UHGV virus genome: UHGV-0113240
Reading direction: 5' to 3' (one strand)
Length of the DNA: 20,402 nucleotides
DNA from: a virus
This document shows positions 2,660 through 19,369 of this stretch, piece by piece (position 1 is the first letter of the stretch; the number at the start of each line of letters is the position of its first letter). A program made the position numbers and the translations under genes. Below the pieces are notes generated by a model. The model worked only from the letters and a program-made list of their open reading frames with translations, ran no database searches and had not been told where the DNA came from.

Positions 2660-3364
2660 TCATTGATTCACTTCCTGCGGCGGTTCTGGTAGTGGTATCC
2701 AGAACAAGGCGTTCCCTAACCACGATAAAGTGCCGTCGCTCAACTCCACGTATTCCCCTTGCACCTGTCCTGCCATATACTCACCGTGCTTTGAATAAAT
2801 TAAAATCCAATCATCTTGAGCGGGCATTCGCTCACTACAGCTTATCCAACCATCCGGAGTTACCGGAGAGTTGCCGGGTTCTTTAATGTGCAAGCGAGGC
2901 TCACCATCTTTTGGCTCAGGCCACTGGCGCTCCATGTTGATCTTCAATTTATCTTCCATAGCAGCGGTAATTTCAGCATCGCTGATGCCAGCACGGCGCT
3001 GTGCATCCCACAACAGAAACTGCATATCAGCCCACTCGCTAAGATCGTCTGGTTCGGCTGCGGCTTCCAGTGCCTCTTTTGAGAGGTGTTTCAGTGGACC
3101 AATGGGGCCAACGCAGCCAAATGTGGAGTCAGACCATTTGGCATGCTCGTGGCGAATCTGTTCGCGTTCCAGCGATGCCAGCACAATTCGTGCCAGCTCA
3201 CGCACTACTTCCGGTGGCGCGTAACGGTCATTCAGGTCATCCCACAGGCGTAGCATGTTATCGCTACCAGGGTGAACATCCTCGTTAGTTCCGGCAAGCG
3301 CACTAATAACCTCATCGGCTGCCTCAATAATTTTCAGAGTTTGTTCTCTGGTAATAGTGGTCAT
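2660..3364 (-). CDS. DUF550 (dATP/dGTP pyrophosphohydrolase-like) / DUF551 fusion protein
   Basis: 234-aa ORF; N-terminal half resembles prophage MazG-like DUF550 proteins, C-terminal WISCSERMP...WIPLPEPP resembles DUF551; assignment from recalled family features. Confidence 0.55.
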   Translation of the reverse strand: MTTITREQTLKIIEAADEVISALAGTNEDVHPGSDNMLRLWDDLNDRYAPPEVVRELARIVLASLEREQIRHEHAKWSDSTFGCVGPIGPLKHLSKEALEAAAEPDDLSEWADMQFLLWDAQRRAGISDAEITAAMEDKLKINMERQWPEPKDGEPRLHIKEPGNSPVTPDGWISCSERMPAQDDWILIYSKHGEYMAGQVQGEYVELSDGTLSWLGNALFWIPLPEPPQEVNQ

Positions 3365-3570
3365 TTGTTAATCCTCAAAACTTTATGCCCAGGTGCAAAG
3401 GCACGCGTTTTGTCTTTGCTTATTCGCCAGCCATCCTTGCGCGCCTCTTTTGCACAGCCAGCCCATGACGTACCGATATACTCACCGAAGTCTGGCGTTT
3501 GATATTTACCATTTGTACACTGGCGACAATCACAGTAGAGATGCATGGTGTAACTTGCAGCAATAGCCAT
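3361..3570 (-). CDS. small Cys-rich hypothetical phage protein
   Basis: 69-aa ORF with AAGGAG 7 nt upstream of its ATG; stop overlaps the start of the downstream DUF550 gene (ATGA coupling). Confidence 0.5.
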   Translation of the reverse strand: MAIAASYTMHLYCDCRQCTNGKYQTPDFGEYIGTSWAGCAKEARKDGWRISKDKTRAFAPGHKVLRINK

Positions 3571-3571
3571 A

Positions 3572-3922
3572 TCAGGCTCCTTTAGTGCGCAAGTGGTTTT
3601 TCCAGCGGTTTTGCGCCGCGCTGGGCTTTTTGCAACAACTGTGACCCATCACCCCGCAACACCCCGTCAACCTCACTCGTCTGTTACTAATCCTCAACCA
3701 TCGCCAGACCCCTACACCGTTTCTGCGAGCTAACAGAATCTTTGCTTTACGGTTTTTCATCGTTTTGCTCTCCTGCGTCTCTTTGCTGCTCGTCGTGCCG
3801 CTGCAATACCGGTATGGCGGCGCTTTGGTGCCGGGATGATGCTGCCAGCCATCAGGACCTGTGGCTTTGCAATTAGCGCAGAAGCCCAAAAACGAGTCGG
3901 GTACGGTAACAAGCCGATACAT
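3572..3922 (-). CDS. hypothetical small basic Cys-containing protein (start uncertain: ATG 3922 or internal ATG 3760 with AGGAGAG upstream)
   Basis: Open frame between ea22-like stop and the 3361..3570 gene; internal start at 3760 has a good SD; composition (R/W/C-rich) also fits out-of-frame translation, so weak. Confidence 0.3.
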   Translation of the reverse strand: MYRLVTVPDSFLGFCANCKATGPDGWQHHPGTKAPPYRYCSGTTSSKETQESKTMKNRKAKILLARRNGVGVWRWLRISNRRVRLTGCCGVMGHSCCKKPSAAQNRWKNHLRTKGA

Positions 3923-3932
3923 GCCACACGCA

Positions 3933-4709
3933 CTACTCACCTCCTTTGATGCGAATGCCAGCGGCGCGCTCGGCTTCACTTTGTTCCCAAAACCACTTGT
4001 GAAGCGCCATAAGCTTTTCGTCAATCGGTGCATATTTGCGATTAAAGTAGGCCTGAGCATCTTTCTCAGATTCGTCCGGCAATTCGCCTGGGCCAAACAG
4101 TGTGTTATAAATCCATGCCAGTCCGCTCTTAGCGTCGCCAGTTGCCTGCCATTCGATAATGGCAGCCTGCATGACCAGAATGTTTTTCCCGATTAATAGG
4201 TCCAGTTCTTTGTACCGGTTGCGGATGTATGCATTCTCGCTTTGTAATTTTGCGTTGCGCTTTTCTGAGGCTTCAAGTAACGCCTGCTTATCGCGTAGCG
4301 CTTCTTCCAGTTCAGCAACATGGCATTCACTATCAATAAGGTTGTTCTCTGCTGCTTCCAGCTCAACACGCAGCTTCCCTACCGTTAACGCCATCTCCTC
4401 GTTCTCCTGGTCGCGGCGTTTGATGTATTGCTGGTTTCTTTCCAGCTCATCCAGCAGCGCCAAGACGGTAGCAGGATTGGCTGCGGCGATGAATTCAGCA
4501 TTGGCCTGCTGTTCCATTTGGAAATCTTCATCGAAACCGCTTTCTGGATGCGCTCCTTCAATTCTGCAAATAGGAATATATCCAGCAACTTCACGATGAA
4601 TTAGCGCATCATCACCATCAAATCGGCTCTCTCCATATTCGAGCGACCACTCACCACACGTTGCTTTTTCTGCCGCCTCACGCAGTGCCTGATAATTAAT
4701 TTCGCTCAC
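3933..4709 (-). CDS. Ead/Ea22-like protein
   Basis: 258-aa ORF with N-terminal MSEINYQALREAAEKATCGEW... and a central coiled-coil-like segment, as in lambdoid ead/Ea22-family proteins; lies in the b2/ea region between xis and exo. Confidence 0.6.
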   Translation of the reverse strand: MSEINYQALREAAEKATCGEWSLEYGESRFDGDDALIHREVAGYIPICRIEGAHPESGFDEDFQMEQQANAEFIAAANPATVLALLDELERNQQYIKRRDQENEEMALTVGKLRVELEAAENNLIDSECHVAELEEALRDKQALLEASEKRNAKLQSENAYIRNRYKELDLLIGKNILVMQAAIIEWQATGDAKSGLAWIYNTLFGPGELPDESEKDAQAYFNRKYAPIDEKLMALHKWFWEQSEAERAAGIRIKGGE

Positions 4710-8213: not shown

Positions 8214-9041
8214 TTAGACTTGAGGAAGTATTTTTTTTGCAAAATCAATAGTTTCTTTGTGGCTGGATGCAGGTATATGATTTATTTTCTTAGCATCCAT
8301 AGTTCTCTTTATGATGTCAATAACTTTGCTTTGGCCTGAGTTTGGTGATTCAGGGGTTTCAATTGTGAATAGAATGTCATCAAGTGAAAGCAGGTTTTCT
8401 TCTGCTGCTCGAGTTATTCTCATCACCCAAGTATCACTATGCTCCATCATTTTTCCGGGTTCAGTTTGAGTGAATGCCAGAGGTTTGATGGCACATTGGA
8501 TCCTGTCGTGCTTCTTGGCGACCAATGGCATTGAGAACTTTGCGAAATACCCATCAATAGTTGCTTGTTTGAAGACGTTCTTCAATCCATCTATTCTATC
8601 GATACTGCGTTTTAGCTCTCTAGCTAGGACATCTTCACGGCGCTCTTTTGTGTAGTCAGCGTGGTTTACATATTTATTGTAAATGCGAGCCAACTCTTCT
8701 TTCGGGTTTTCACTGAGGATAACTCTCGTAGAGCTGAACTGAAAAATTGATTCTTTTTTGTTTGTAAAATATCTGAAGAATTGTGCAAGTTGTTGATGTC
8801 CAACAATCTGGGTAGCATGCATTTTTGCGAACTGGAGTTCTCTTTGTATTGAGTCTTTTGCTACGGGAAAAATGCAATCATCATGGAAGAAATTCTTTAC
8901 ACGAGAGTCATTTCGCTTTGTGAGCTGGAAGTCAAAGTAATTTTCTTTTGGCGCGCACAGAAGTACGCCTATGTTTGCGAACTCTTCAGTCTCCGCATAA
9001 GGCGCATAGCGAACGATGCTATATAGGCATGGAGTTGTCAT
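8214..9041 (-). CDS. DUF3037-like protein (start at ATG 9041, overlapping the upstream TGA)
   Basis: 275-aa ORF; N-terminal CLYSIVRYAPYAETEEFANIGVLL resembles the conserved N-terminal motif recalled for DUF3037; ATGA overlap with the kinase-like gene. Confidence 0.55.
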   Translation of the reverse strand: MTTPCLYSIVRYAPYAETEEFANIGVLLCAPKENYFDFQLTKRNDSRVKNFFHDDCIFPVAKDSIQRELQFAKMHATQIVGHQQLAQFFRYFTNKKESIFQFSSTRVILSENPKEELARIYNKYVNHADYTKERREDVLARELKRSIDRIDGLKNVFKQATIDGYFAKFSMPLVAKKHDRIQCAIKPLAFTQTEPGKMMEHSDTWVMRITRAAEENLLSLDDILFTIETPESPNSGQSKVIDIIKRTMDAKKINHIPASSHKETIDFAKKILPQV

Positions 9042-9790
9042 TCTATTGCGCTCCAAAATTCATCACAATCACCTTTGCCTAGCGTAGTGCAGACAAAAGG
9101 TAAAAACTCATCATCTACTATCCACTCCTCTGGAATTTCGTCAAGGATAGCAGGAAGTTTGTGTAAACTGTCAACGACCCTCTGGCGGTACTCTACGCGA
9201 TCCACTAAATCATACTGCCATTTGCGGTTACCCGGGCCGTACACGTGTACAGAAAAATCTTCAGGCCCAGCATTCTGATCAAATGATAGATTATGGTCAA
9301 TCAGATAATACTTATCGTTACTGATGTCATAAAGGATATTGACGTTTCCGCCTTTATCAGTAAGCGTTCTGTCTGCATTTAATATCCACTTATCAAAAGC
9401 ATAGATTAATTTTTGCTGTTCGACTGGGATGATCATTTCGTTTCTTGACTGCGTAAACGTTAACGCGATTGCACCGTCTATGAACAATGAAGCAAAAGCA
9501 TACCCTGTACAAATTTGTTGCTGCAGATCAGGTGTGTACTCTACAAGTTCCTCTGGTACAAATACGATTTTAAAGTCAGGTAAAGGAAGGCCGATATCAT
9601 TAGCCAGGCACGCCGAAATGAACTCAGCTAAGAGATTTTTCGGGGGCATTGATGGTTTAGATTTCAAAACATACAACTGCCCATCATCACATTTGCAAAG
9701 AAATGGCTGAGTGGAACCTTCATTGATGCGACGTATTACTTCAACGACATTAGGTATTGCACTACTGCTGCTTGCTTCGCGCTCCATCAC
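9038..9790 (-). CDS. atypical HipA / PI-kinase-like kinase-domain protein
   Basis: 250-aa ORF with LYVLK (candidate beta3 Lys), WILNADRTLTDKGGNVNIL (DRxxxxxxN-type catalytic loop) and YYLIDHNLSFD (DFG-like) motifs; directly downstream of cI. Confidence 0.5.
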   Translation of the reverse strand: MMEREASSSSAIPNVVEVIRRINEGSTQPFLCKCDDGQLYVLKSKPSMPPKNLLAEFISACLANDIGLPLPDFKIVFVPEELVEYTPDLQQQICTGYAFASLFIDGAIALTFTQSRNEMIIPVEQQKLIYAFDKWILNADRTLTDKGGNVNILYDISNDKYYLIDHNLSFDQNAGPEDFSVHVYGPGNRKWQYDLVDRVEYRQRVVDSLHKLPAILDEIPEEWIVDDEFLPFVCTTLGKGDCDEFWSAIE

Positions 9791-9925: not shown

Positions 9926-10618
9926 TTAACCATGCTTCCTGTACGTCTGAGGCATGCTCCCGATGACCTTACCGAAGATGAATACACGGTTCATCTCGTC
10001 TTTCTCGATTGGGTCCCATGGTGAATAGCTCTTGTTGTCAGAGATAACCAGCAGCTTATCCTTCATCATTTGAAGGCGCTTAACATGGGCCGTATCGTCG
10101 TAAAGGAACGCATAAATCCCGTCGCCGTCGAAAGATTTGATGGCGATATCGACGAACAGCAAGTCACCCGGTTCGATCGTTCCTGACATGCTGTCACCGC
10201 GTACGTTAATGATGCGGATATTTTCTGCCTTCCTGCCATCGAACATGTGACGAGCATCGTCAAACGAGTACTCAACAGAGCGCAGGACTTCTACAAACTC
10301 ACGGTTGATGACACCCGGCCCAGCACTGACTTCTATATCAAGAACGTCAATCTTGAAGTATTTGGAATGGTTGACAGTAGGCTTCCCTGATTGTTGACCG
10401 TCATTTCTCATCGGGCCTATGCCTGATGAGAGCCACTCTGTTCGAACACCCAATGCATTAGCTATTTCAACAATTTTTGTTGAGCCGCGCGCGTTGCCGC
10501 TTGTCAGTCTCCAGATTGTGGGTTGAGCTACGCCAGACGCCTTTGCAAGAGCGCCTTGAGACATTCCAGATTGTTCCATCGCTAGGTTTAAGCGATCAGC
10601 AAGAGTTTCTTTTTTCAT
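9926..10618 (-). CDS. cI: CI-type prophage repressor (HTH + S24 LexA-like autopeptidase domain)
   Basis: N-terminal HTH (SQGALAKASGVAQPTIWRL), C-terminal GDSMSGT Ser and KRL Lys of the S24 dyad; divergent from cro; start taken at ATG 10618 (tracked ORF starts at TTG 10654). Confidence 0.85.
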   Translation of the reverse strand: MKKETLADRLNLAMEQSGMSQGALAKASGVAQPTIWRLTSGNARGSTKIVEIANALGVRTEWLSSGIGPMRNDGQQSGKPTVNHSKYFKIDVLDIEVSAGPGVINREFVEVLRSVEYSFDDARHMFDGRKAENIRIINVRGDSMSGTIEPGDLLFVDIAIKSFDGDGIYAFLYDDTAHVKRLQMMKDKLLVISDNKSYSPWDPIEKDEMNRVFIFGKVIGSMPQTYRKHG

Positions 10619-10725
10619 AAGTTTTAATTTATACGCTTGCGTATTGATGGTCAAAACACGTTTTGCTATTGCTATGGTTAATACGCATTGCTATTATTTG
10701 TTTGTTGCAATACCAATAGGAATTA
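10619..10725. promoter_or_regulatory. OR-like operator region with divergent promoters
   Basis: 107-bp cI-cro intergenic region containing TTGCTATTGCTATGG, ATTGCTATTATT, CAATACCAATAGG and the palindrome ATACGCttGCGTAT. Confidence 0.5.
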
Positions 10726-12542: not shown

Positions 12543-13228
12543 AAAACATCGCCGCACAGATAGTTAATTTTGACCGTGAGCAGATGCGCCGGATCGCCAA
12601 TAACATGCCGGAACAGTACGACGAAAAGCCGCAGGTACAGCAGGTAGCGCAGATTATCAATGGTGTGTTCCGCCAGTTACTGGCAACTTTCCCGGCGAGC
12701 GTGGCTAACCGGGACCAGAACGAACTGAACGAAATCCGCCGCCAGTGGGTTCTGGCTTTCCGGGAAAACGGGATCACCACAATGGAACAGGTTAACGCTG
12801 GAATGCGCGTAGCCCGTCGGCAGAATCGACCATTCCTGCCATCACCCGGGCAGTTTGTCGCCTGGTGCCGGGAAGAAGCATCCGTTACCGCCGGGCTGCC
12901 AAACGCCAGCGAGCTGGTTGATATGGTTTACGAGTATTGCCGGAAGCGCGGGCTGTATCCGGATGCAGAGTCTTATCCGTGGAAATCAAACGCGCACTAC
13001 TGGCTGGTTACCAACCTGTATCAGAACATGCGGGCCAATGCGTTGACTGACGCGGAATTACGGCGCAAGGCTGCCGATGAACTGTCCTGTATGACCGCAC
13101 GAATTAACCGTGGTGAGGCTATACCTGAACCAGTAAAACAACTTCCTGTCATGGGCGGTAGACCTCTAAATCGTGCACAGGCTCTGGCGAAGATCGCAGA
13201 AATCAAAGCTAAGTTTGGGCTGAAATGA
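12539..13228 (+). CDS. P: replication protein P (DnaB helicase loader)
   Basis: 229-aa protein recalled as near-identical to lambda P (MKNIAAQ.VNFDREQMRRIANNMPEQYDEKPQVQQ...). Confidence 0.95.
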   Translation: MKNIAAQIVNFDREQMRRIANNMPEQYDEKPQVQQVAQIINGVFRQLLATFPASVANRDQNELNEIRRQWVLAFRENGITTMEQVNAGMRVARRQNRPFLPSPGQFVAWCREEASVTAGLPNASELVDMVYEYCRKRGLYPDAESYPWKSNAHYWLVTNLYQNMRANALTDAELRRKAADELSCMTARINRGEAIPEPVKQLPVMGGRPLNRAQALAKIAEIKAKFGLK

Positions 13229-13530
13229 GCAAGGGTATGACGGGCAAAGAGGCAATTATTCATTACCTGGGGACTCATAAGAAATTCTGTGCGCAGGACG
13301 TTGCCGCGGTAACAGGCGCAACGGTAACCAGCATAAATCAGGCTGCGGCTAAAATGGCGCGGGCAGGAATCCTGGTCGTTGATGGTAAGGTCTGGCGAAC
13401 GGTGTATTATCGGTTCGCTACCAGAGAAGAACGGGAAGGAAAGGTGAGCACGAATTTGATTTTTAAGGAGTGTCGCCAGAGTGCCGCGATGAAGCGGGTG
13501 TTGGCGGTATATGGGAGGACTACAGCATAA
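13225..13530 (+). CDS. ren: Ren protein (start may be the internal ATG at 13237)
   Basis: Sequence MTGKEAIIHYLGTH...VTGATVTSINQAAAKMARAG...VYYRFATREEREGK matches lambda Ren; immediately follows P. Confidence 0.85.
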   Translation: MSKGMTGKEAIIHYLGTHKKFCAQDVAAVTGATVTSINQAAAKMARAGILVVDGKVWRTVYYRFATREEREGKVSTNLIFKECRQSAAMKRVLAVYGRTTA

Positions 13531-14007
13531 GCATAACTTATGGATTATATGGAAAACTGGTAATTATGCTCTTTTCTTATGAAAATAAAGAGAAGTTTTC
13601 GCTGGCGTTTTATTTCTTCTGTTTTTTCTTGCGGGTTATTCTGATTTGTTTTGATTTGATTTTTTCTGACAAAAGTAGGGAAAAAATATGTCGCAAGTAC
13701 TTTCTGTCTTTACCTCCTAAATTACATTCTCTATCAAATGTTGCCATAGTTATGACCCCAGTTTTATATAGTGTTTCAGCAATTTTTCTGTAGTTTTTTT
13801 CTCGCAAAATTGAAGAGTTTTTCTTTGCTGTATTTTCAAGGCTATCTCCTTGTGGTTTAAGACTATTTGGGCCAAAAAACGTTGTGGATACTGCTGCACT
13901 TGTTGTCCGTTTTTTTTGGCCCATTTGGATAGTACTTGGGAGAGGCATGATTTTAATACGCATATAAATAACTCCTCTATCAATTGGATTTTGGGAAAAT
14001 GTTAACA

Positions 14008-14325
14008 TTAATCATGATTAAGGAGTAATTTTAAATCTTCCAATAAAATTTGTTTAAACTCTTGTGTTCTATGATCGATATACAACGCAAGTTTGCTTGC
14101 ATTATCTTCCAGGTCACGTATCTCTCTGTCACCTCGAATAAACCCAACTAAATTTAAACGTTTAGATAGTTCAGAACTTCCTTCTATGGCATCTTGGAGT
14201 ATTTGAATGATTTCTGAATTCATTGAGCGCCCGTTTCGTTTGGCTCGTTCAGCTATAGCTTCACGCATCCCATCAGGGAAACGGAGGTTAAACTTATCGT
14301 AGTCTTTTACTTGTTTGTCAGCCAT
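14008..14325 (-). CDS. Mnt/Arc-family ribbon-helix-helix repressor (start at ATG 14325)
   Basis: 105-aa ORF MADKQVKDYDKFNLRFPDGMREAIAERAKRNGRSMNSEIIQILQDAI with an RHH N-terminus; GGGGG SD; divergent from a second RHH gene. Confidence 0.6.
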   Translation of the reverse strand: MADKQVKDYDKFNLRFPDGMREAIAERAKRNGRSMNSEIIQILQDAIEGSSELSKRLNLVGFIRGDREIRDLEDNASKLALYIDHRTQEFKQILLEDLKLLLNHD

Positions 14326-14345
14326 TGAACCCCCCAAAAAAATGA

Positions 14346-14401
14346 ATGGTGCCATATTGCCACATCAATTCAATGGTGGCATTATGGCCTCATGGTGTCA
14401 T
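14346..14401. promoter_or_regulatory. candidate operator: three direct repeats of ATGGTGNCAT between the divergent RHH genes
   Basis: ATGGTGCCAT (14346), ATGGTGGCAT (14373), ATGGTGTCAT (14392) at 27- and 19-bp spacing. Confidence 0.4.
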
Positions 14402-14424
14402 TGTGGCCTCATGAGGTTATGTCA

Positions 14425-14583
14425 ATGGAAAAGAAAGAGGTAAAAATTACCCTTCGCTATCCGCAAAAAGTGAAGGATGAATTCAAGCGAATTGCTCAGG
14501 AGGAAGGGATGTCTGAGAACGCAGCTATTGTTCAGGCGCTTGTATGGGCATTGAAATTTAGAACACGGATACATGCTCGCTAG
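14425..14583 (+). CDS. Arc-like ribbon-helix-helix repressor (52 aa; start at ATG 14425)
   Basis: MEKKEVKITLRYPQKVKDEFKRIAQEEGMSENAAIVQALV has the RHH pattern and P22 Arc-like size; GAGG 8 nt upstream; directly precedes an antirepressor-like gene. Confidence 0.55.
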   Translation: MEKKEVKITLRYPQKVKDEFKRIAQEEGMSENAAIVQALVWALKFRTRIHAR

Positions 14584-14653
14584 AAACAGCGAAGCCCCAC
14601 TGGCGGCAACCTTAGGGGCTTCTATCGAAAATAACCGCGAAGGAAATATCGAC

Positions 14654-15322
14654 ATGAGTATTGTAGCAACATCAGATCTGAACTTCCAAGGTGAAGCACT
14701 AGTGCCAGTGGCAAATATTGCCGGAATATGGCTAACTTCATCCAACCTAGCAAGAGCACTGAAGTATTCGAATAGTCGCGCAGTCACGATGATTTACAAC
14801 AAATATGCTGACGAATTTTCCAGTAGTATGACTAGAGTGCTTGAAGTCAGTACCTTAGAGAATGATGTCGAGGTACTTGATCTGAGTACCTCGAAAAGTA
14901 CTCGAAACTTGAAGAAGAAAGTACGCGTTTTCTCTCTCCGCGGAGCCCATTTGATCGCCATGTTCGCCCGCACTCCTGTAGCCAAAGAGTTCCGCCGTTG
15001 GGTTCTGGATATTCTCGATCGAGAAGTTCAACAATCCCCAATCATAAAACAATTCACTGATAACGAACTTTGCACACTTGCTTGGTTGTGGCGAGCTGGG
15101 GATGCGATGTTAACCGCCTGCCAGAACGTTACTCCTCTTCTTCAGGTTGCGGAGCATCGTGAAGCTGGTCGCTTCACTTCTATCGAGCAAGAATATCCCC
15201 AGATACTCAATAAGGCACAGGCAATCCTTGCCAGAGAAACGGCACATGTAAAATTCCGGCCGTGGCAGGATGATAAGTGGAGTCGAGTTTTGCCGCATTT
15301 ACGTTCGGATCGATTACAGTAG
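14654..15322 (+). CDS. Bro-N domain antirepressor-like protein (start at ATG 14654 after AAGGAA)
   Basis: RVFSLRGAHLIAMFARTPVAKEFRRWVLDIL matches the conserved Bro-N/antirepressor N-domain signature; follows the arc-like gene as in P22 immI. Confidence 0.6.
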   Translation: MSIVATSDLNFQGEALVPVANIAGIWLTSSNLARALKYSNSRAVTMIYNKYADEFSSSMTRVLEVSTLENDVEVLDLSTSKSTRNLKKKVRVFSLRGAHLIAMFARTPVAKEFRRWVLDILDREVQQSPIIKQFTDNELCTLAWLWRAGDAMLTACQNVTPLLQVAEHREAGRFTSIEQEYPQILNKAQAILARETAHVKFRPWQDDKWSRVLPHLRSDRLQ

Positions 15323-15783
15323 ATTCCAATTAACAATGAGAAACACATAGCCACCCCGTGGTATTGAAACCATATAATGTTGGATTTGAAAACAGATCTT
15401 TTTCCATGTATTAATAACTACATCCCCGCGAGTGATTCAAAAAGGAGGGCCCAATTTTGTCCGAGTTTTTGTATTCCCCCGCATGCCGCTGCGGAGCACT
15501 ACATCTGAGTGTCTGACTAGGGGATAAAATTAGACTGGATAGTGAGAAGAAAGTGGCGTGCTAGGCTGTGCCGAGTGCTACCAGTACACCCTGGGGGTGT
15601 GCAGCTTTCGCCGAGACTGTAGTGGGTATCGGTTAATGCACGAAAAACCGAGAGGTCAGACAACCAATTTGCCGTAGGATTGTTTCCGGTGCGATACCGG
15701 TGTACTAACTGAAAGCAATGCGAAAAAGCATAAACTCGGTCCTTCAGTCGCCCTACACACTATTTACTAAGAAGGGCTAAAGC

Positions 15784-16140
15784 ATGGATACAATTATCAC
15801 ATGGATGGGAGATCGTCTGTTGGGGTGGATAACAAACAAATCCGATCTGCGGCAGAGGGCAATCACTGGATTAACTCCTGCGATTTGTTCAACAATTTTA
15901 TATACTGAAAAATTAAAACGTGGTGAGCCTAATAACCCAAACGAAGAAGAAAAACTTTATAGGCTTTGGTATGAAGCGTCTTCCCAAGTCGTAGACTTTG
16001 ATCGAGAGCTGGCTAAAAGATGTTTAGATAAATCAGAATATTGGCTTCATTCTGAATTATATAGCCCTGAGAAAGTTGAAGAGCTAAACATTTCTTTGGT
16101 TGGTATGAAGGCAATGCTTGAAGGAATAAAGCACAATTAA
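15784..16140 (+). CDS. hypothetical protein (orphan, no recognised family)
   Basis: 118-aa ORF with AAGAAGGG SD; preceded by about 460 bp without any tracked ORF. Confidence 0.4.
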   Translation: MDTIITWMGDRLLGWITNKSDLRQRAITGLTPAICSTILYTEKLKRGEPNNPNEEEKLYRLWYEASSQVVDFDRELAKRCLDKSEYWLHSELYSPEKVEELNISLVGMKAMLEGIKHN

Positions 16141-16327
16141 AACCTTTGATTTGCGATAATCAACTCGCCATAATCATGTCATCGGAGCCTGAACAACTCC
16201 GGTGACTTCTGCGCTAAACGGGGACGTTTATGCGCACACACAATCCAAACTCTCTTCTCCCTCCGCAGATGCAGAAATGCACCTGCGATATATTGTATCC
16301 AGCGTTTCACCTCTACGGAGGTGAAGC

Positions 16328-16783
16328 GTGAACCTCCCACAAGATGGTATCAAATTGCATCGCGGTAACTTCACCGCTATCGGTCGGCAGATCCAGCCTT
16401 ATCTGGAGGACGGCAAATGCTTTCGCATGGTGCTTAAACCGTGGCGCGAGAGACGCAGTCTTTCCCAGAATGCACTCAGCCACATGTGGTACAGCGAAAT
16501 CAGTGAATACCTCATCAGCAAGGGTAAAACGTTCGCCACTCCAGCTTGGGTAAAAGATGCTCTCAAACACACATATCTCGGTTATGAAACCAAAGACCTG
16601 GTTGATGTCGTAACCGGTGATATCACCACTATCCAGTCGTTACGCCATACCTCCGATCTTGATACCGGAGAGATGTATGTCTTCCTCTGTAAGGTTGAAG
16701 CCTGGGCGATGAATATTGGCTGCCACCTGACTATTCCGCAGAGCTGCGAGTTCCAGCAGCTCCGCGACAAGCAGGAGGCGTAA
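16328..16783 (+). CDS. ybcN: YbcN-like protein (DLP12-type nin region)
   Basis: 151-aa ORF, GTG start 4 nt after GGAGGTGA; recalled near-identity to E. coli DLP12 YbcN. Confidence 0.75.
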
Positions 16784-16953
16784 TGGCTACACCGCTTATT
16801 CGTGTCATGAACGGACACATCTACAGAGTACCAAATCGTCGTAAGCGTAAACCTGAGCTGAAGCCTTCCGAAATACCAACACTGCTCGGATATACCGCCA
16901 GCCTGGTTGATAAAAAATGGTTGCGACTGGCAGCAAGGAGGAATCATGGCTGA
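16783..16953 (+). CDS. ninE: NinE-like protein (not in ORF track, 56 aa)
   Basis: ATG overlaps the ybcN stop (TAATG); [56 protein letters not shown] resembles lambda/DLP12 NinE. Confidence 0.65.
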   Translation: MATPLIRVMNGHIYRVPNRRKRKPELKPSEIPTLLGYTASLVDKKWLRLAARRNHG

Positions 16954-17236
16954 TTTGAGAAAAGCAGCGCGTGGTCGGGAATGCCAGGTAAGAATCCCTG
17001 GCGTATGTAATGGCAACCCTGAAACGTCTGTACTGGCACATATCCGGCTGGCTGGATTGTGCGGCACCGGTATTAAACCGCCAGACCTGATTGCCACCAT
17101 TGCATGTTCTGCCTGTCACGATGAGATCGACCGTCGCACGAATTTTGTTAACGCTGGATATGCAAAAGAATGCGCGCTGGAAGGTATGGCGAGAACGCAG
17201 GTTATCTGGCTGAAAGAGGGGGTAATTAAGGCGTGA
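16946..17236 (+). CDS. ybcO: YbcO-like (DUF1364) protein
   Basis: 96-aa ORF from internal ATG ([28 protein letters not shown]...); recalled near-identity to DLP12 YbcO; overlaps ninE end and rusA start. Confidence 0.75.
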
Positions 17237-17595
17237 ATACTTACCACATCACACTACCCTGGCCGCCGAGCAATAACCGCTACTACCGCCATAATCGCGG
17301 GCGCACACACATCAGCGCAGAAGGGCAGGCATACCGCGATAACGTCACCCGAATCATTAAAAACGCAATGCTGGATATCGGCCTGGCTATGCCAGTGAAA
17401 ATCCGTATTGAGTGCCACATGCCGGATCGCCGTCGCCGTGACCTGGATAATCTGCAAAAAGCCGCTTTTGACGCACTCACCAAAGCAGGTTTCTGGCTGG
17501 ATGATGCTCAGGTCGTTGATTACCGCGTTGTGAAGATGCCTGTTACCAAAGGTGGGAGGCTGGAACTGACCATCACCGAAATGGGGAATGAATGA
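17233..17595 (+). CDS. rusA: Holliday-junction resolvase RusA
   Basis: 120-aa protein [25 protein letters not shown]... recalled as near-identical to E. coli RusA. Confidence 0.9.
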
Positions 17596-17732
17596 TGTTT
17601 GAGTTTTATATGGCAGAACTTCTTCGCCACCGCTGGGGGCGTCTGCGCTTATATCGTTTCCCCGGTTCTGTTTTGACCGATTACCGGATACTGAAGAATT
17701 ACGCCAAAACACTGAAAGGAGCTGCCGCATGA
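17592..17732 (+). CDS. ylcG: YlcG-like small protein (not in ORF track, 46 aa)
   Basis: [46 protein letters not shown]; ATGA overlaps with rusA stop and with the next gene's start. Confidence 0.6.
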
Positions 17733-18418
17733 ATACCCAATATTTACAGTATGTCCGCGAGCAACTCATTGTGGCTACTGCTGATTTGGGCGGAGCAACG
17801 AAAGGCCAGCTTGAAGCCTGGCTGGAGCATGCACAATTTGATACTGGTACATATAAACGAAAGAAGCCGCGCATTATGGATGAGGTAACGGGCAAGATGA
17901 TTACGCTGGATAATCCGCCGATTTCCGGTAAGCAGTCGTACGCAAAAGGTTCATCCATTGCACTGGTCAGCCAGGTTGAGTTCTCAACATCTTCATGGCG
18001 CCGCGCGGTTCTGTCTCTCGAAGAACATCAGAAAGCGTGGTTGCTGTGGAGTTACAGCGAAAGTGTTCGCTGGGAACATCAGGTCACCATAACGCAGTGG
18101 GTATGGAGCGAGTTTAAGACTCTGTTGGGTACCAGGAAAATTGCAGGTAAGACACTGGAACGTTTGAAGAAGTTGATCTGGCTGGCGGCACAGGATGTGA
18201 AGAACGAGCTGGCAGGGCGTAAGACCTATGAATACCAGGAGCTGGCATTACTGGCGGGAGTGACAACTAAAAACTGGTCCAAAACATTTACTCGTCACTG
18301 GGTTGCAATGAAACACATTTTTCACCGACTGGATAGTGAGGCTTTATTGTTTGTAATGAGAACACGTTCAAAACAAAAGGTGGCATTTTCAAAGCAAAGT
18401 GTTGCAAAAGTAGATTGA
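17729..18418 (+). CDS. late-gene antiterminator Q-like protein
   Basis: 229-aa ORF in the canonical Q position: after rusA/ylcG and immediately before a promoter-like stretch plus strong intrinsic terminator (pR'-tR' arrangement); family assignment by position, not sequence. Confidence 0.55.
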   Translation: MNTQYLQYVREQLIVATADLGGATKGQLEAWLEHAQFDTGTYKRKKPRIMDEVTGKMITLDNPPISGKQSYAKGSSIALVSQVEFSTSSWRRAVLSLEEHQKAWLLWSYSESVRWEHQVTITQWVWSEFKTLLGTRKIAGKTLERLKKLIWLAAQDVKNELAGRKTYEYQELALLAGVTTKNWSKTFTRHWVAMKHIFHRLDSEALLFVMRTRSKQKVAFSKQSVAKVD

Positions 18419-18628: not shown

Positions 18629-18704
18629 GGCCCTTTAGCTCAGTGGTGAGAGCGAGCGACTCATAATCGCCAGGTCGCTGGTTCAAATCCAGCAAGGGCC
18701 ACCA
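18629..18704 (+). tRNA. ileZ: tRNA-Ile2 (anticodon CAU, lysidine type; could alternatively read as Met)
   Basis: 76-nt cloverleaf: acceptor GGCCCTT/AAGGGCC, anticodon loop CUCAUAA, T-loop GGTTCAAATCC, 3' ACCA; recalled close match to E. coli ileX-type tRNA. Confidence 0.8.
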
Positions 18705-18713
18705 TATCACATA

Positions 18714-18790
18714 CCGCCATTAGCTCATCGTGACAGAGCGCCAGCCTTCGAAGCTGGCTGCGCGGGGTTCAAGTCCCCGATGGCGGTCCA
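18714..18790 (+). tRNA. argN: tRNA-Arg (anticodon UCG)
   Basis: Acceptor CCGCCAT/ATGGCGG, anticodon stem CCAGC/GCTGG with loop CUUCGAA, T-arm CGGGG-TTCAAGT-CCCCG, 3' TCCA. Confidence 0.75.
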
Positions 18791-18803
18791 TTATCGGTAT
18801 TCT

Positions 18804-18880
18804 GCGTTGTTAGCTCAGCCGGACAGAACAATTGCCTTCTAAGCAATCGGTCACTGGTTCGAATCCAGTACAACGCGCCA
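18804..18880 (+). tRNA. argO: tRNA-Arg (anticodon UCU)
   Basis: Acceptor GCGTTGT/ACAACGC, anticodon stem ATTGC/GCAAT with loop CUUCUAA, T-loop GGTTCGAATCC, 3' GCCA. Confidence 0.8.
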
Positions 18881-19169
18881 CACCACACTTATCTGCCCTG
18901 ACTCTCTTTTGCGGGCTTTTTATTACAGGAAAGACACCGGACAGTGAAATGTTAAATGCCTCACAATTCAGGCAGTTGACTGTTGCCTGACATGCTGAGC
19001 GTTTGTTAAAAAAATCCTGCATGATGAATCCCCCTGAGCGGCGGGGCATAATGACAGATGTTTGGTTGCGTATTGTATAGGCAAGTTGCGGATTCTGTCT
19101 GGTCATTGCAGAATTCACCGGGAGGCACCCGGCATCATGCATCTGGTGAATTAAATGTGCATACGTAAT

Positions 19170-19194
19170 GCCCCTCTTCGGAGGGGCTTTTTTT
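19170..19194 (+). terminator. strong intrinsic terminator
   Basis: GCCCCTC-ttcg-GAGGGGC hairpin followed by TTTTTTT. Confidence 0.75.
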
Positions 19195-19369
19195 CGGAAA
19201 AAGCACGCAATGGGCGTGCATTAGCATGAGATATTGAGGCTTTAAATTTTTTCGTGCGGGTTTTAACCCGGTTTCATGAGGCTGCGCAACTGCGTGGCCT
19301 TTTTTGTTTTTCTGGCTGCTGAAAGTGGCAGTCACAGTCCTTCATATCACCCGTGACCGGGGAGGAACA

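Follow-up and report, generated by a model that had tools for sequence, protein, structure and literature searches.

A P22 immI-like mnt-arc-sar-ant module and a candidate structured RNA in the nin region of a lambdoid prophage

The 20,402-nt (20.4-kb) stretch of the virus genome UHGV-0113240, referred to here in its full length as the window, corresponds to a lambdoid prophage's early region. In the interval 13531-16327, between the ren gene and the nin genes, it carries two divergent genes for repressors of the ribbon-helix-helix (RHH) type, a control region between them, an ant-like gene and an antisense RNA resembling sar. The original prediction had described this DNA as a module organized like immI of phage P22: mnt transcribed leftward, arc and ant transcribed rightward, and operators between them. 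Each element that it named was found at the position it had given, with a sar-like RNA in addition, and profile hidden Markov model searches detected the RHH and Bro-N/ANT domains above the Pfam cut-offs. Here, the components of the module are described, its probable function is weighed against other explanations, and the neighboring cassettes are characterized, including a large structured RNA.

The divergent repressor genes and their control region

The mnt-like gene (14008..14325, minus strand) encodes a 105-residue RHH repressor, as expected from the sequence. The protein matches the Pfam family Arc (5e-20; 71.5 bits, cut-off 20.4), its best PDB match is 1mnt (E 1.7e-8), and it is 47% identical to P22 Mnt over residues 2-50, the RHH domain. 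Its relative gp54 of the Stx2 phage WGPS6 is 69% identical. The C-terminal ~50 residues form an extension unrelated to P22 Mnt; the C-terminal tetramerization domain Repressor_Mnt (PF11423), which P22 Mnt matches at 1.6e-20, gave no Pfam match in the Mnt-like protein. The arc-like gene (14425..14583, plus strand), the first of the rightward operon, encodes a 52-residue protein that likewise bears out its predicted Arc-sized RHH character: it scores 22.1 bits with Pfam Arc (1.4e-4; cut-off 20.4), its PDB matches are Arc repressor entries, it belongs to PHROG 582, "Arc-like repressor" (4e-9), and it shares 36% identity with P22 Arc over 45 residues. Judged by these similarities, the assignment is reciprocal, the left gene matching best to Mnt and the right gene to Arc. 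Extended forms of the two RHH open reading frames (ORFs), of 115 and 63 residues, were rejected: they start inside the promoter/operator region and are not common to the relatives.

The spacer between the two genes measures 99 bp, as compared with 90 bp in P22. Three direct repeats had been proposed to lie in it, and the 10-mer ATGGTGNCAT does occur exactly three times in the window (14346-55, 14373-82 and 14392-401), each time in this spacer; 0.27 occurrences are expected by chance, and three were reached anywhere in the window in 1 of 100 shuffles. These 10-mers are the left halves of three predicted 19-bp operator units, O1 (14347-14365), O2 (14374-14392) and O3 (14393-14411), which together make up the control region (14347..14411). 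Each unit consists of a box TGGTGNCA followed, 11 bp on, by a box TGGCCTCA (TGCCACAT in O1); the boxes are one helical turn apart, as would be expected for sites of a dimer of RHH dimers. The repeat families D1 and D2 and the inverted repeat I2 were also detected in the control region.

A promoter scan placed a Pant-like promoter (9/12) on the plus strand, with a -35 element TTGCCA at 14357-62, a 17-nt spacer and a TG-extended -10 element (TGgCATTAT) ending at 14385. From this -10 element to the arc ATG there are 39 nt, the same distance as in P22. On the minus strand we infer a weaker Pmnt-like promoter (7/12; -35 at 14382-77, -10 at 14359-54), so placed that the two promoters stand back-to-back and overlap. 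The predicted Pant start falls within O3, at the place that Omnt has in P22; O2 lies over the Pant -10 element, and O1 lies over both the Pant -35 element and the weak Pmnt-like promoter. Any assignment of the two RHH proteins to particular units is tentative.

The relatives of the Mnt-like protein provide further information on these sites. Stx2 phages with the same Mnt N-terminus keep O1, O2 and the left half of O3. In these phages, where the Mnt-like N-terminus is ~78% identical, O1, O2 and both promoters show ~85% DNA identity, and Arc shows just 33% identity. Across the relatives, the Mnt beta-strand covaries with the box: KFNLR is found with TGGYGNCA, KFMLR with ATGTCAT/ATGACAT palindromes, and PQLRIR with CCCCACGGTGGGG, a box that resembles P22 Omnt. 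This covariation, with palindromic operators at the Omnt-equivalent position, extends over cassettes from Photorhabdus, Xenorhabdus, Klebsiella and E. coli.

Control of ant by LexA, as in modules of the Gifsy type, was rejected: no LexA box (CTGT-N8-ACAG with at most one mismatch) is present in 13098-18177, that is, in or near the module. In the whole window, 14 sites of this form were counted against 6.9 expected, a number reached by 0 of 100 shuffles.

The antisense RNA and the effector gene

In P22, sar is a 70-nt antisense RNA that starts from a promoter inside the beginning of ant, covers the ribosome-binding site of that gene and ends at a terminator abutting arc. In the window, the arc-ant spacer (70 nt; 68 nt in P22) can be aligned base by base to P22 sar and to the copy in the Stx2 phage, including the ant ATG and the first codons. 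The predicted sar-like RNA is ~70 nt long, runs from 14653 to 14584 on the minus strand and is complementary to the ant ribosome-binding site. It would fold into a 5' hairpin with an anti-Shine-Dalgarno UUCCU in its loop region and a terminator hairpin with the stem 14591-98/14615-22 and a U-rich tail after it, with a minimum free energy of -24.6 kcal/mol (z -2.3). The same fold (5' hairpin with anti-Shine-Dalgarno loop, terminator hairpin and U tail) is predicted in all 18 of the 18 relatives. The terminator stem shows compensatory changes in the P22/Stx2-phage alignment, and its columns 45/65 in the 18 relatives read AU in seven, CG in five, GC in four, and UG and UA in one each.

In a permissive Rfam scan, the interval gave a single meaningful match, to the sar family RF00262, at 14588-14652 on the minus strand; it spans model positions 1-68 of 68 with 34 bits (E = 2.3e-4 when 2.9 kb were searched and 1.4e-5 for 181 nt). 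An independent promoter scan placed a Psar-like promoter (14660..14689, minus strand) in the first 12 codons of ant, with a -35 element TTGGAA at 14689-84 and a TG-extended -10 element TACAAT at 14665-60; the aligned -10 elements are TATACT in P22 and TAAACT in the Stx2 phage. This promoter covers +7..+36 of ant, and the annotated P22 sar promoter covers +7..+35. Because the family match, the alignment, the fold and the promoter position agree, the homology with immI extends down to the antisense RNA. On the grounds of synteny and alignment, the RNA can be regarded as a previously unrecognized sar homologue that stands outside the curated Rfam family boundary.

The ant-like gene (14654..15322, plus strand) encodes 222 residues with a Bro-N domain at the N-terminus (7.6e-9) and a P22_AR_C domain at the C-terminus (1.8e-16), each above its Pfam cut-off, and the protein matches the PHROG annotation "anti-repressor Ant" at 1.9e-48. 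The earlier description of a Bro-N antirepressor-like gene therefore holds for the domain and for the Ant families, with the qualification that the N-domain is not of the P22 type. The C-domain aligns with residues 177-271 of P22 Ant, a similarity that is specific although weak (21% identity, pairwise E 6e-4). The start codon favored here is the ATG at 14654, because it aligns with the P22 ant ATG and because of the position of sar. Matches of the relatives in tblastn begin at residue 1, 3 or 6 of the 222-residue form and never in the 27-codon extension that results from the RefSeq start at 14573; this extension, which produces an 11-nt overlap with arc and lies over sar, is not common to the relatives, and the RefSeq start was rejected. 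Phage records also start ant at 14573, and the Stx2 phage WGPS6 is annotated with the same 11-nt overlap.

A scan of viral contigs found 463 relatives of the Ant protein, and the cassettes of the best 79 loci were surveyed (individual loci carry L numbers). In one group among these 79, Mnt, Arc and sar are encoded upstream, both in the nin region (loci identical or near-identical to the window, and L023) and in other contexts. In more than 50 of the loci, an Ant protein with 66-70% identity and the same Bro-N and P22_AR_C domains occupies the ren-ninB position with the isrK and C4 RNAs upstream; these RNAs exceed the Rfam gathering scores in front of the homologous ant in L030, L033, L045 and L068 (~3770-3960). 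The first codons of ant differ between the Mnt/Arc/sar and isrK/C4 classes, which fits a Psar promoter embedded in them. Among effectors controlled by Mnt, Arc and sar, P22_AR_C is the constant part, and the N-domain is P22_AR_N in P22 and the Stx2 phage, Bro-N here and ORF6N in Photorhabdus. Judging from these sequences, one effector family is found in the effector position of two independently characterized antirepressor control systems. The antirepressor slot appears to be combinatorial, with a single P22_AR_C family placed under either Mnt/Arc/sar or isrK/C4, with swappable N-domains and in at least three genomic positions.

Function of the module and its relation to known systems

We consider it very probable that 14008-15322 is a homologue of P22 immI and thus a secondary immunity switch controlling an antirepressor. 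The Ant-like protein would act on a CI-type repressor, and a target of this type is encoded in the same prophage (9926-10654). If the switch works as in P22, the Mnt-like protein would sit on O3 over the start of the Pant-like promoter in the lysogen and keep arc and ant silent. Once Pant fired, the Arc-like protein would shut it off again after a burst, in an autoregulatory manner, and the sar RNA would pair with the ant ribosome-binding site and limit ant translation. The Ant protein would bind non-covalently to its own CI-type repressor, or to those of co-resident lambdoid prophages, and take them off their operators without RecA. Since arc and ant point in the direction of the PR operon and mnt runs against it, early transcripts antiterminated by N should also continue into ant once induction has started and would reinforce the lytic commitment.

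The module resembles P22 immI in gene order and orientation, in its two RHH repressors homologous to Mnt and Arc, in the predicted back-to-back promoters with an equal distance from the -10 element to arc, in the places of sar and its promoter relative to ant, and in the P22_AR_C domain of the effector. In both cases the module is part of a rightward phage operon to which mnt is antisense; the relation of immI to the late operon in P22 corresponds to the relation to the PR operon here. The differences are also clear. The N-domain of Ant is Bro-N here and P22_AR_N in P22, the Mnt-like protein is devoid of the Repressor_Mnt C-domain, and the operators consist of TGGTGNCA boxes and not of the P22 Oarc and Omnt sequences. 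The module is located in the nin region of the early operon, in contrast to the position of immI between the late genes 16 and 9, a sieA-type gene is absent here, and the unrelated orf117 follows mnt. The type of switch itself is known; what is new relative to P22 is the domain-swapped effector, the location in the nin region and the previously unrecognized sar homologue.

Two other groups of cassettes are informative. The immI-like cassettes of the Stx2-converting phages WGPS6, 2851, 1717 and YYZ-2008 share with the window the Mnt-like N-terminus (residues 1-55), the conserved O1, O2 and promoter DNA, a sar-like hairpin with compensatory changes and the overlap of arc with the annotated ant; they differ in lying among the tail genes, in their divergent Arc and in a 334-residue Ant of the P22 type (P22_AR_N and P22_AR_C). 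Cassettes of the isrK/C4 type, known from P1 immI and from Gifsy-1 (isrK-orf45-anrP), place the related Ant between ren and ninB as well, in more than 50 viral contigs, but under the control of isrK and C4 RNAs and not of Mnt, Arc and sar; neither of these RNAs, which an immI of the P1 type has upstream of ant, was found by the Rfam scan in the window. Gifsy-1 has the order isrK-C4-anrP-isrJ, and expression of AnrP induces this prophage (PMC4825925). Loci for ant related to that of P22 are known from Phi24B and Kapi1, which are lambdoid or P22-like coliphages (PMC3064807, PMC12922286). The Phi24B Ant is 82% identical to that of P22 over its C-terminal 104 residues, and the Ant-like protein studied here is far more distant; a nin-region module of the Bro-N type is described in neither of the two papers.

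Several observations weigh against the module being a functional immI switch. Because the Mnt tetramerization domain is absent, the oligomeric state of the Mnt-like protein is uncertain, and so is its operator occupancy. The Pmnt-like promoter is weak (7/12) and offset by ~8 bp relative to P22. The RF00262 match, at 34 bits, does not reach the gathering score of 43, as is also the case for the relatives searched; P22 alone lies above it, with 97.8 bits. Similarity to P22 Ant is limited to the C-domain, and whole-length homology through both P22_AR_N and P22_AR_C was not found. For proteins that combine Bro-N with P22_AR_C, the inactivation of a repressor seems to be without experimental precedent. 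AnrP of Gifsy-1 (STM2616), the tested effector of an isrK/C4 cassette, is not detectably homologous to the Ant-like protein, and its experimental evidence therefore transfers only as an argument about the effector slot; direct transfer of that evidence was dropped. The isrK/C4 cassette itself is common to Gifsy-1 and the E. coli relatives. Deletion of the Phi24B ant, whose product has a P22-type C-domain, left superinfection unchanged, and its authors proposed for it no more than a role in efficient induction (PMC3064807). In lysogens of the P22-like coliphage Kapi1, mnt was not detectably expressed (PMC12922286).

One alternative accepts the immI-like circuit and reads its output differently: the Bro-N/P22_AR_C protein might be a DNA-binding regulator of the Bro/KilA-N type, or a toxic or anti-defense effector that is kept tightly off. 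Bro-N is indeed a domain of the DNA-binding type, common to many proteins whose function is different or unknown, in PhiR5_1 the ant-like gene is annotated as "Rha protein", and the Ant-like protein has an N-domain that is not of the P22 type, no homology to the tested AnrP and no solved structure that we could find. We nevertheless regard this alternative as unlikely, given that P22_AR_C is the invariant part of the effectors controlled by Mnt, Arc and sar, that the same Ant family fills the effector slot of two different antirepressor control cassettes, and that the PHROG families of the Ant-like protein are dominated by Ant annotations.

A second alternative, that the module is an inactive relic carried by a decaying prophage, seems very improbable. 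The whole module is present in 5 of 5426 complete E. coli genomes, in each case in a defective prophage of the DLP12 type, and in many E. coli genomes just the 3' third of ant is left. On the other side, all four genes are intact in the window, and an Ant of 100% identity is encoded in three viral contigs. The isolated phage PhiR5_1 (PV340545), with intact ORFs in its module, shares 97.8% identity over 13200-15304, a segment that runs from the end of P through ren and the module almost to the stop codon of ant. The promoter, operator and sar features are kept in relatives at 60-85% identity, which indicates purifying selection. Where only the 3' third of ant remains, it is annotated as a 107-residue "P22AR C-terminal domain-containing protein".

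The least credible alternative, a type II toxin-antitoxin pair in which the leftward RHH gene is the upstream antitoxin of orf117, can draw on their common strand, the 44 nt between them and weak Pfam matches of the RHH gene to the FitA-like and HicB antitoxin families, and it was rejected on the grounds that the Hafnia homologue of orf117, P0005, stands alone at four prophage loci with no RHH gene upstream, that orf117 is broken into two ORFs in the viable phage PhiR5_1, that orf117 matches no toxin family or fold, and that the RHH gene matches best to Mnt and is paired divergently with arc exactly as in P22.

Neighboring cassettes and the structured RNA

The interval had been described as an insertion of about 2.8 kb with visibly lower G+C content. 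The difference in composition was confirmed, the G+C content being 42.0% in 13531-16327 as compared with 53.5% in P and ren and 51.4% in ninB-rusA; the description as a single unit did not hold. The G+C content within the interval is patchy (34% in orf117, 37% in the mnt-like gene, 43-48% in arc and ant, 38% in orf118), with an island of 51% at 15421-15752. BLASTN alignments with lambda, L003 and L030 end at 13502-13514, and those with phage 82, PhiR5_1 and L023 start again at 16142-16146. These limits define a variable cargo (~13515..16141) between ren and a conserved nin region of the phage 82 type, and the segment 16142-16327, with a promoter-like site and orf33, is already part of this conserved region. 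Other cargo is found at the same spot in relatives: emrE/ybcK in L003, and an acyltransferase and a lipoprotein in PhiR30_1. From these comparisons, the cargo is best described as a mosaic of at least four independently distributed cassettes and not as one insertion; orf117, the gene for the structured RNA and orf118 are unrelated cassettes at a common recombination hot spot. The segment 16146-16331 comprises a TTGATT-17-CATAAT promoter-like site and orf33, counterparts of which are annotated in the nin record of phage 82 (X92588) as a putative promoter, a regulator-binding repeat and orf33.

The first of these cassettes, orf117 (13610..13963, minus strand), lies 44 nt downstream of the mnt-like gene and encodes a basic three-helix protein. 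Its start at 13963 is preceded by a GAGGAG Shine-Dalgarno sequence and agrees with RefSeq. The protein found no match in Pfam, PHROG, PADLOC or NCBIfam, and its AlphaFold2 model (predicted local distance difference test score of 71; three helices and a disordered basic N-terminus) gave nothing at E<=0.001 in a Foldseek search against PDB, the best E being 2.1. It has 12 homologues, among them P0005 of Hafnia (61% identical), which at its four prophage loci is a solitary antisense gene at the replication/nin boundary, with no RHH partner. orf117 is a real, conserved gene and, because this homologue stands alone, most plausibly an independent "moron" outside the switch. In PhiR5_1 (L001), the homologue at 3211-3500 is annotated as two short ORFs, which suggests a frameshift and a gene that is dispensable for lytic growth.

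Downstream of ant, the 461-bp non-coding gap contains the second cassette of interest (15386..15753, plus strand), which consists of a promoter-like site (-35 TTGAAA at 15386-91, a 17-nt spacer and -10 TATTAA at 15409-14) and a 331-nt structured RNA (15421-15753). A coding function of 15323-15783 was rejected: its ORFs are of 48 residues or fewer, indels are not multiples of three, and the substitutions are clustered and compensatory. The RNA is 78-83% identical in several lineages of prophages of Klebsiella and other enterobacteria, with different flanking genes, and a scan of metagenomes added further copies, none of them more divergent than 78%. Two 16-mer matches, L107 and L127, were discarded as chance matches and not copies of the RNA. 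From a sequence-based alignment of 12 distinct copies, RNAalifold derived a multi-domain consensus of 91 pairs in 17 helices, 17 of the pairs having compensatory changes. In this consensus, 97.6% of the cells are paired, as compared with 34-46% when the partners are slid by 1-3 columns, and the 17 pairs with double changes compare with 2-6 after sliding; the covariation score was reached by 0 of 500 shuffles. Invariant G-U pairs fix the plus strand as the RNA strand. The promoter-like site is found at a constant distance upstream in all lineages, with a spacer that varies in sequence, and most lineages have an intrinsic terminator with a covarying stem within ~10 nt of the RNA end.

In the E. 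coli lineage, orf118 (15784..16140, plus strand) stands where most other lineages have the terminator, and the RNA runs straight into it. The product of orf118 belongs to phrog_12412, a family of unknown function (1.7e-68), and matched nothing in Pfam, NCBIfam, PADLOC or PDB. Of the 55 E. coli-like loci, 53 have orf118 after the RNA, as do 2 of the 23 divergent-lineage loci whose downstream sequence is long enough for a judgment. The association of the RNA with ant is limited to the E. coli lineage; in L030, L044 and L060, the Ant protein with 66-70% identity is followed by the same RNA gene and orf118. In the many E. coli genomes with the remnant of ant, this remnant, the RNA, orf118 and orf33 are joined to ybcK or emrE of DLP12-type prophages, with a junction at 15012 (15012-16450; L003). 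Of 5426 complete E. coli genomes, 159 carry the RNA, and all of the records listed are without an annotation for it. Rfam 15 at permissive thresholds (E<=5 and E<=1) gave no match to the RNA in the window or in four divergent copies, and no relevant paper on it was found in a literature search. We see an even chance that it represents an undescribed class of large structured RNAs from the nin region of enterobacterial lambdoid prophages, which would have lost the terminator in the E. coli lineage and turned there into the leader of orf118, directly downstream of antirepressor genes. As a candidate new RNA class, recognized by sequence comparison, it would be more unusual than the immI switch.

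The remaining genes of the window are those of a lambdoid early region. The integrase gene (519-1922) is found at the left. A gene pair on the minus strand (8214-9790), encoding a HipA_2-like kinase of 250 residues and a DUF3037 protein of 280 residues, adjoins the gene for the CI-type repressor (9926-10654, minus strand), which has HTH_3 and Peptidase_S24 domains; the pair also matches the PADLOC candidate defense pair PDC-M66A/B (4.7e-15 and 4.4e-16). Between the repressor gene and ren (13225-13530) lie cro-like and YdaT-like genes followed by O and P. Beyond the cargo, ybcN/ninB (16328-16783) is followed by ninE, ybcO and rusA, and Q is located at 17729-18418. Three tRNA genes and the small RNA STnc100 lie downstream of Q (18629-19199), an arrangement typical for lambdoid phages of the Stx type.

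If a Bro-N-type Ant protein of this kind is active, the module would provide the prophage with a route of derepression that is independent of RecA. Its action may then reach co-resident lambdoid prophages, including Stx phages with closely related Mnt proteins and operators, and such cross-induction would bear on prophage cross-talk and toxin release. The occurrence of the same effector family under two unrelated cassettes of antisense RNAs and repressors, with exchanged N-domains, informs on how immunity modules are assembled. Three results can be used directly. The first is the corrected start of ant together with a sar homologue that, like those of the relatives searched, is overlooked by the Rfam gathering threshold. 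The covariation between the Mnt beta-strand and the operator boxes constitutes a small natural data set on the rules of RHH recognition, and in the 331-nt RNA, so far unannotated, there is a concrete candidate for a new class of phage RNA.

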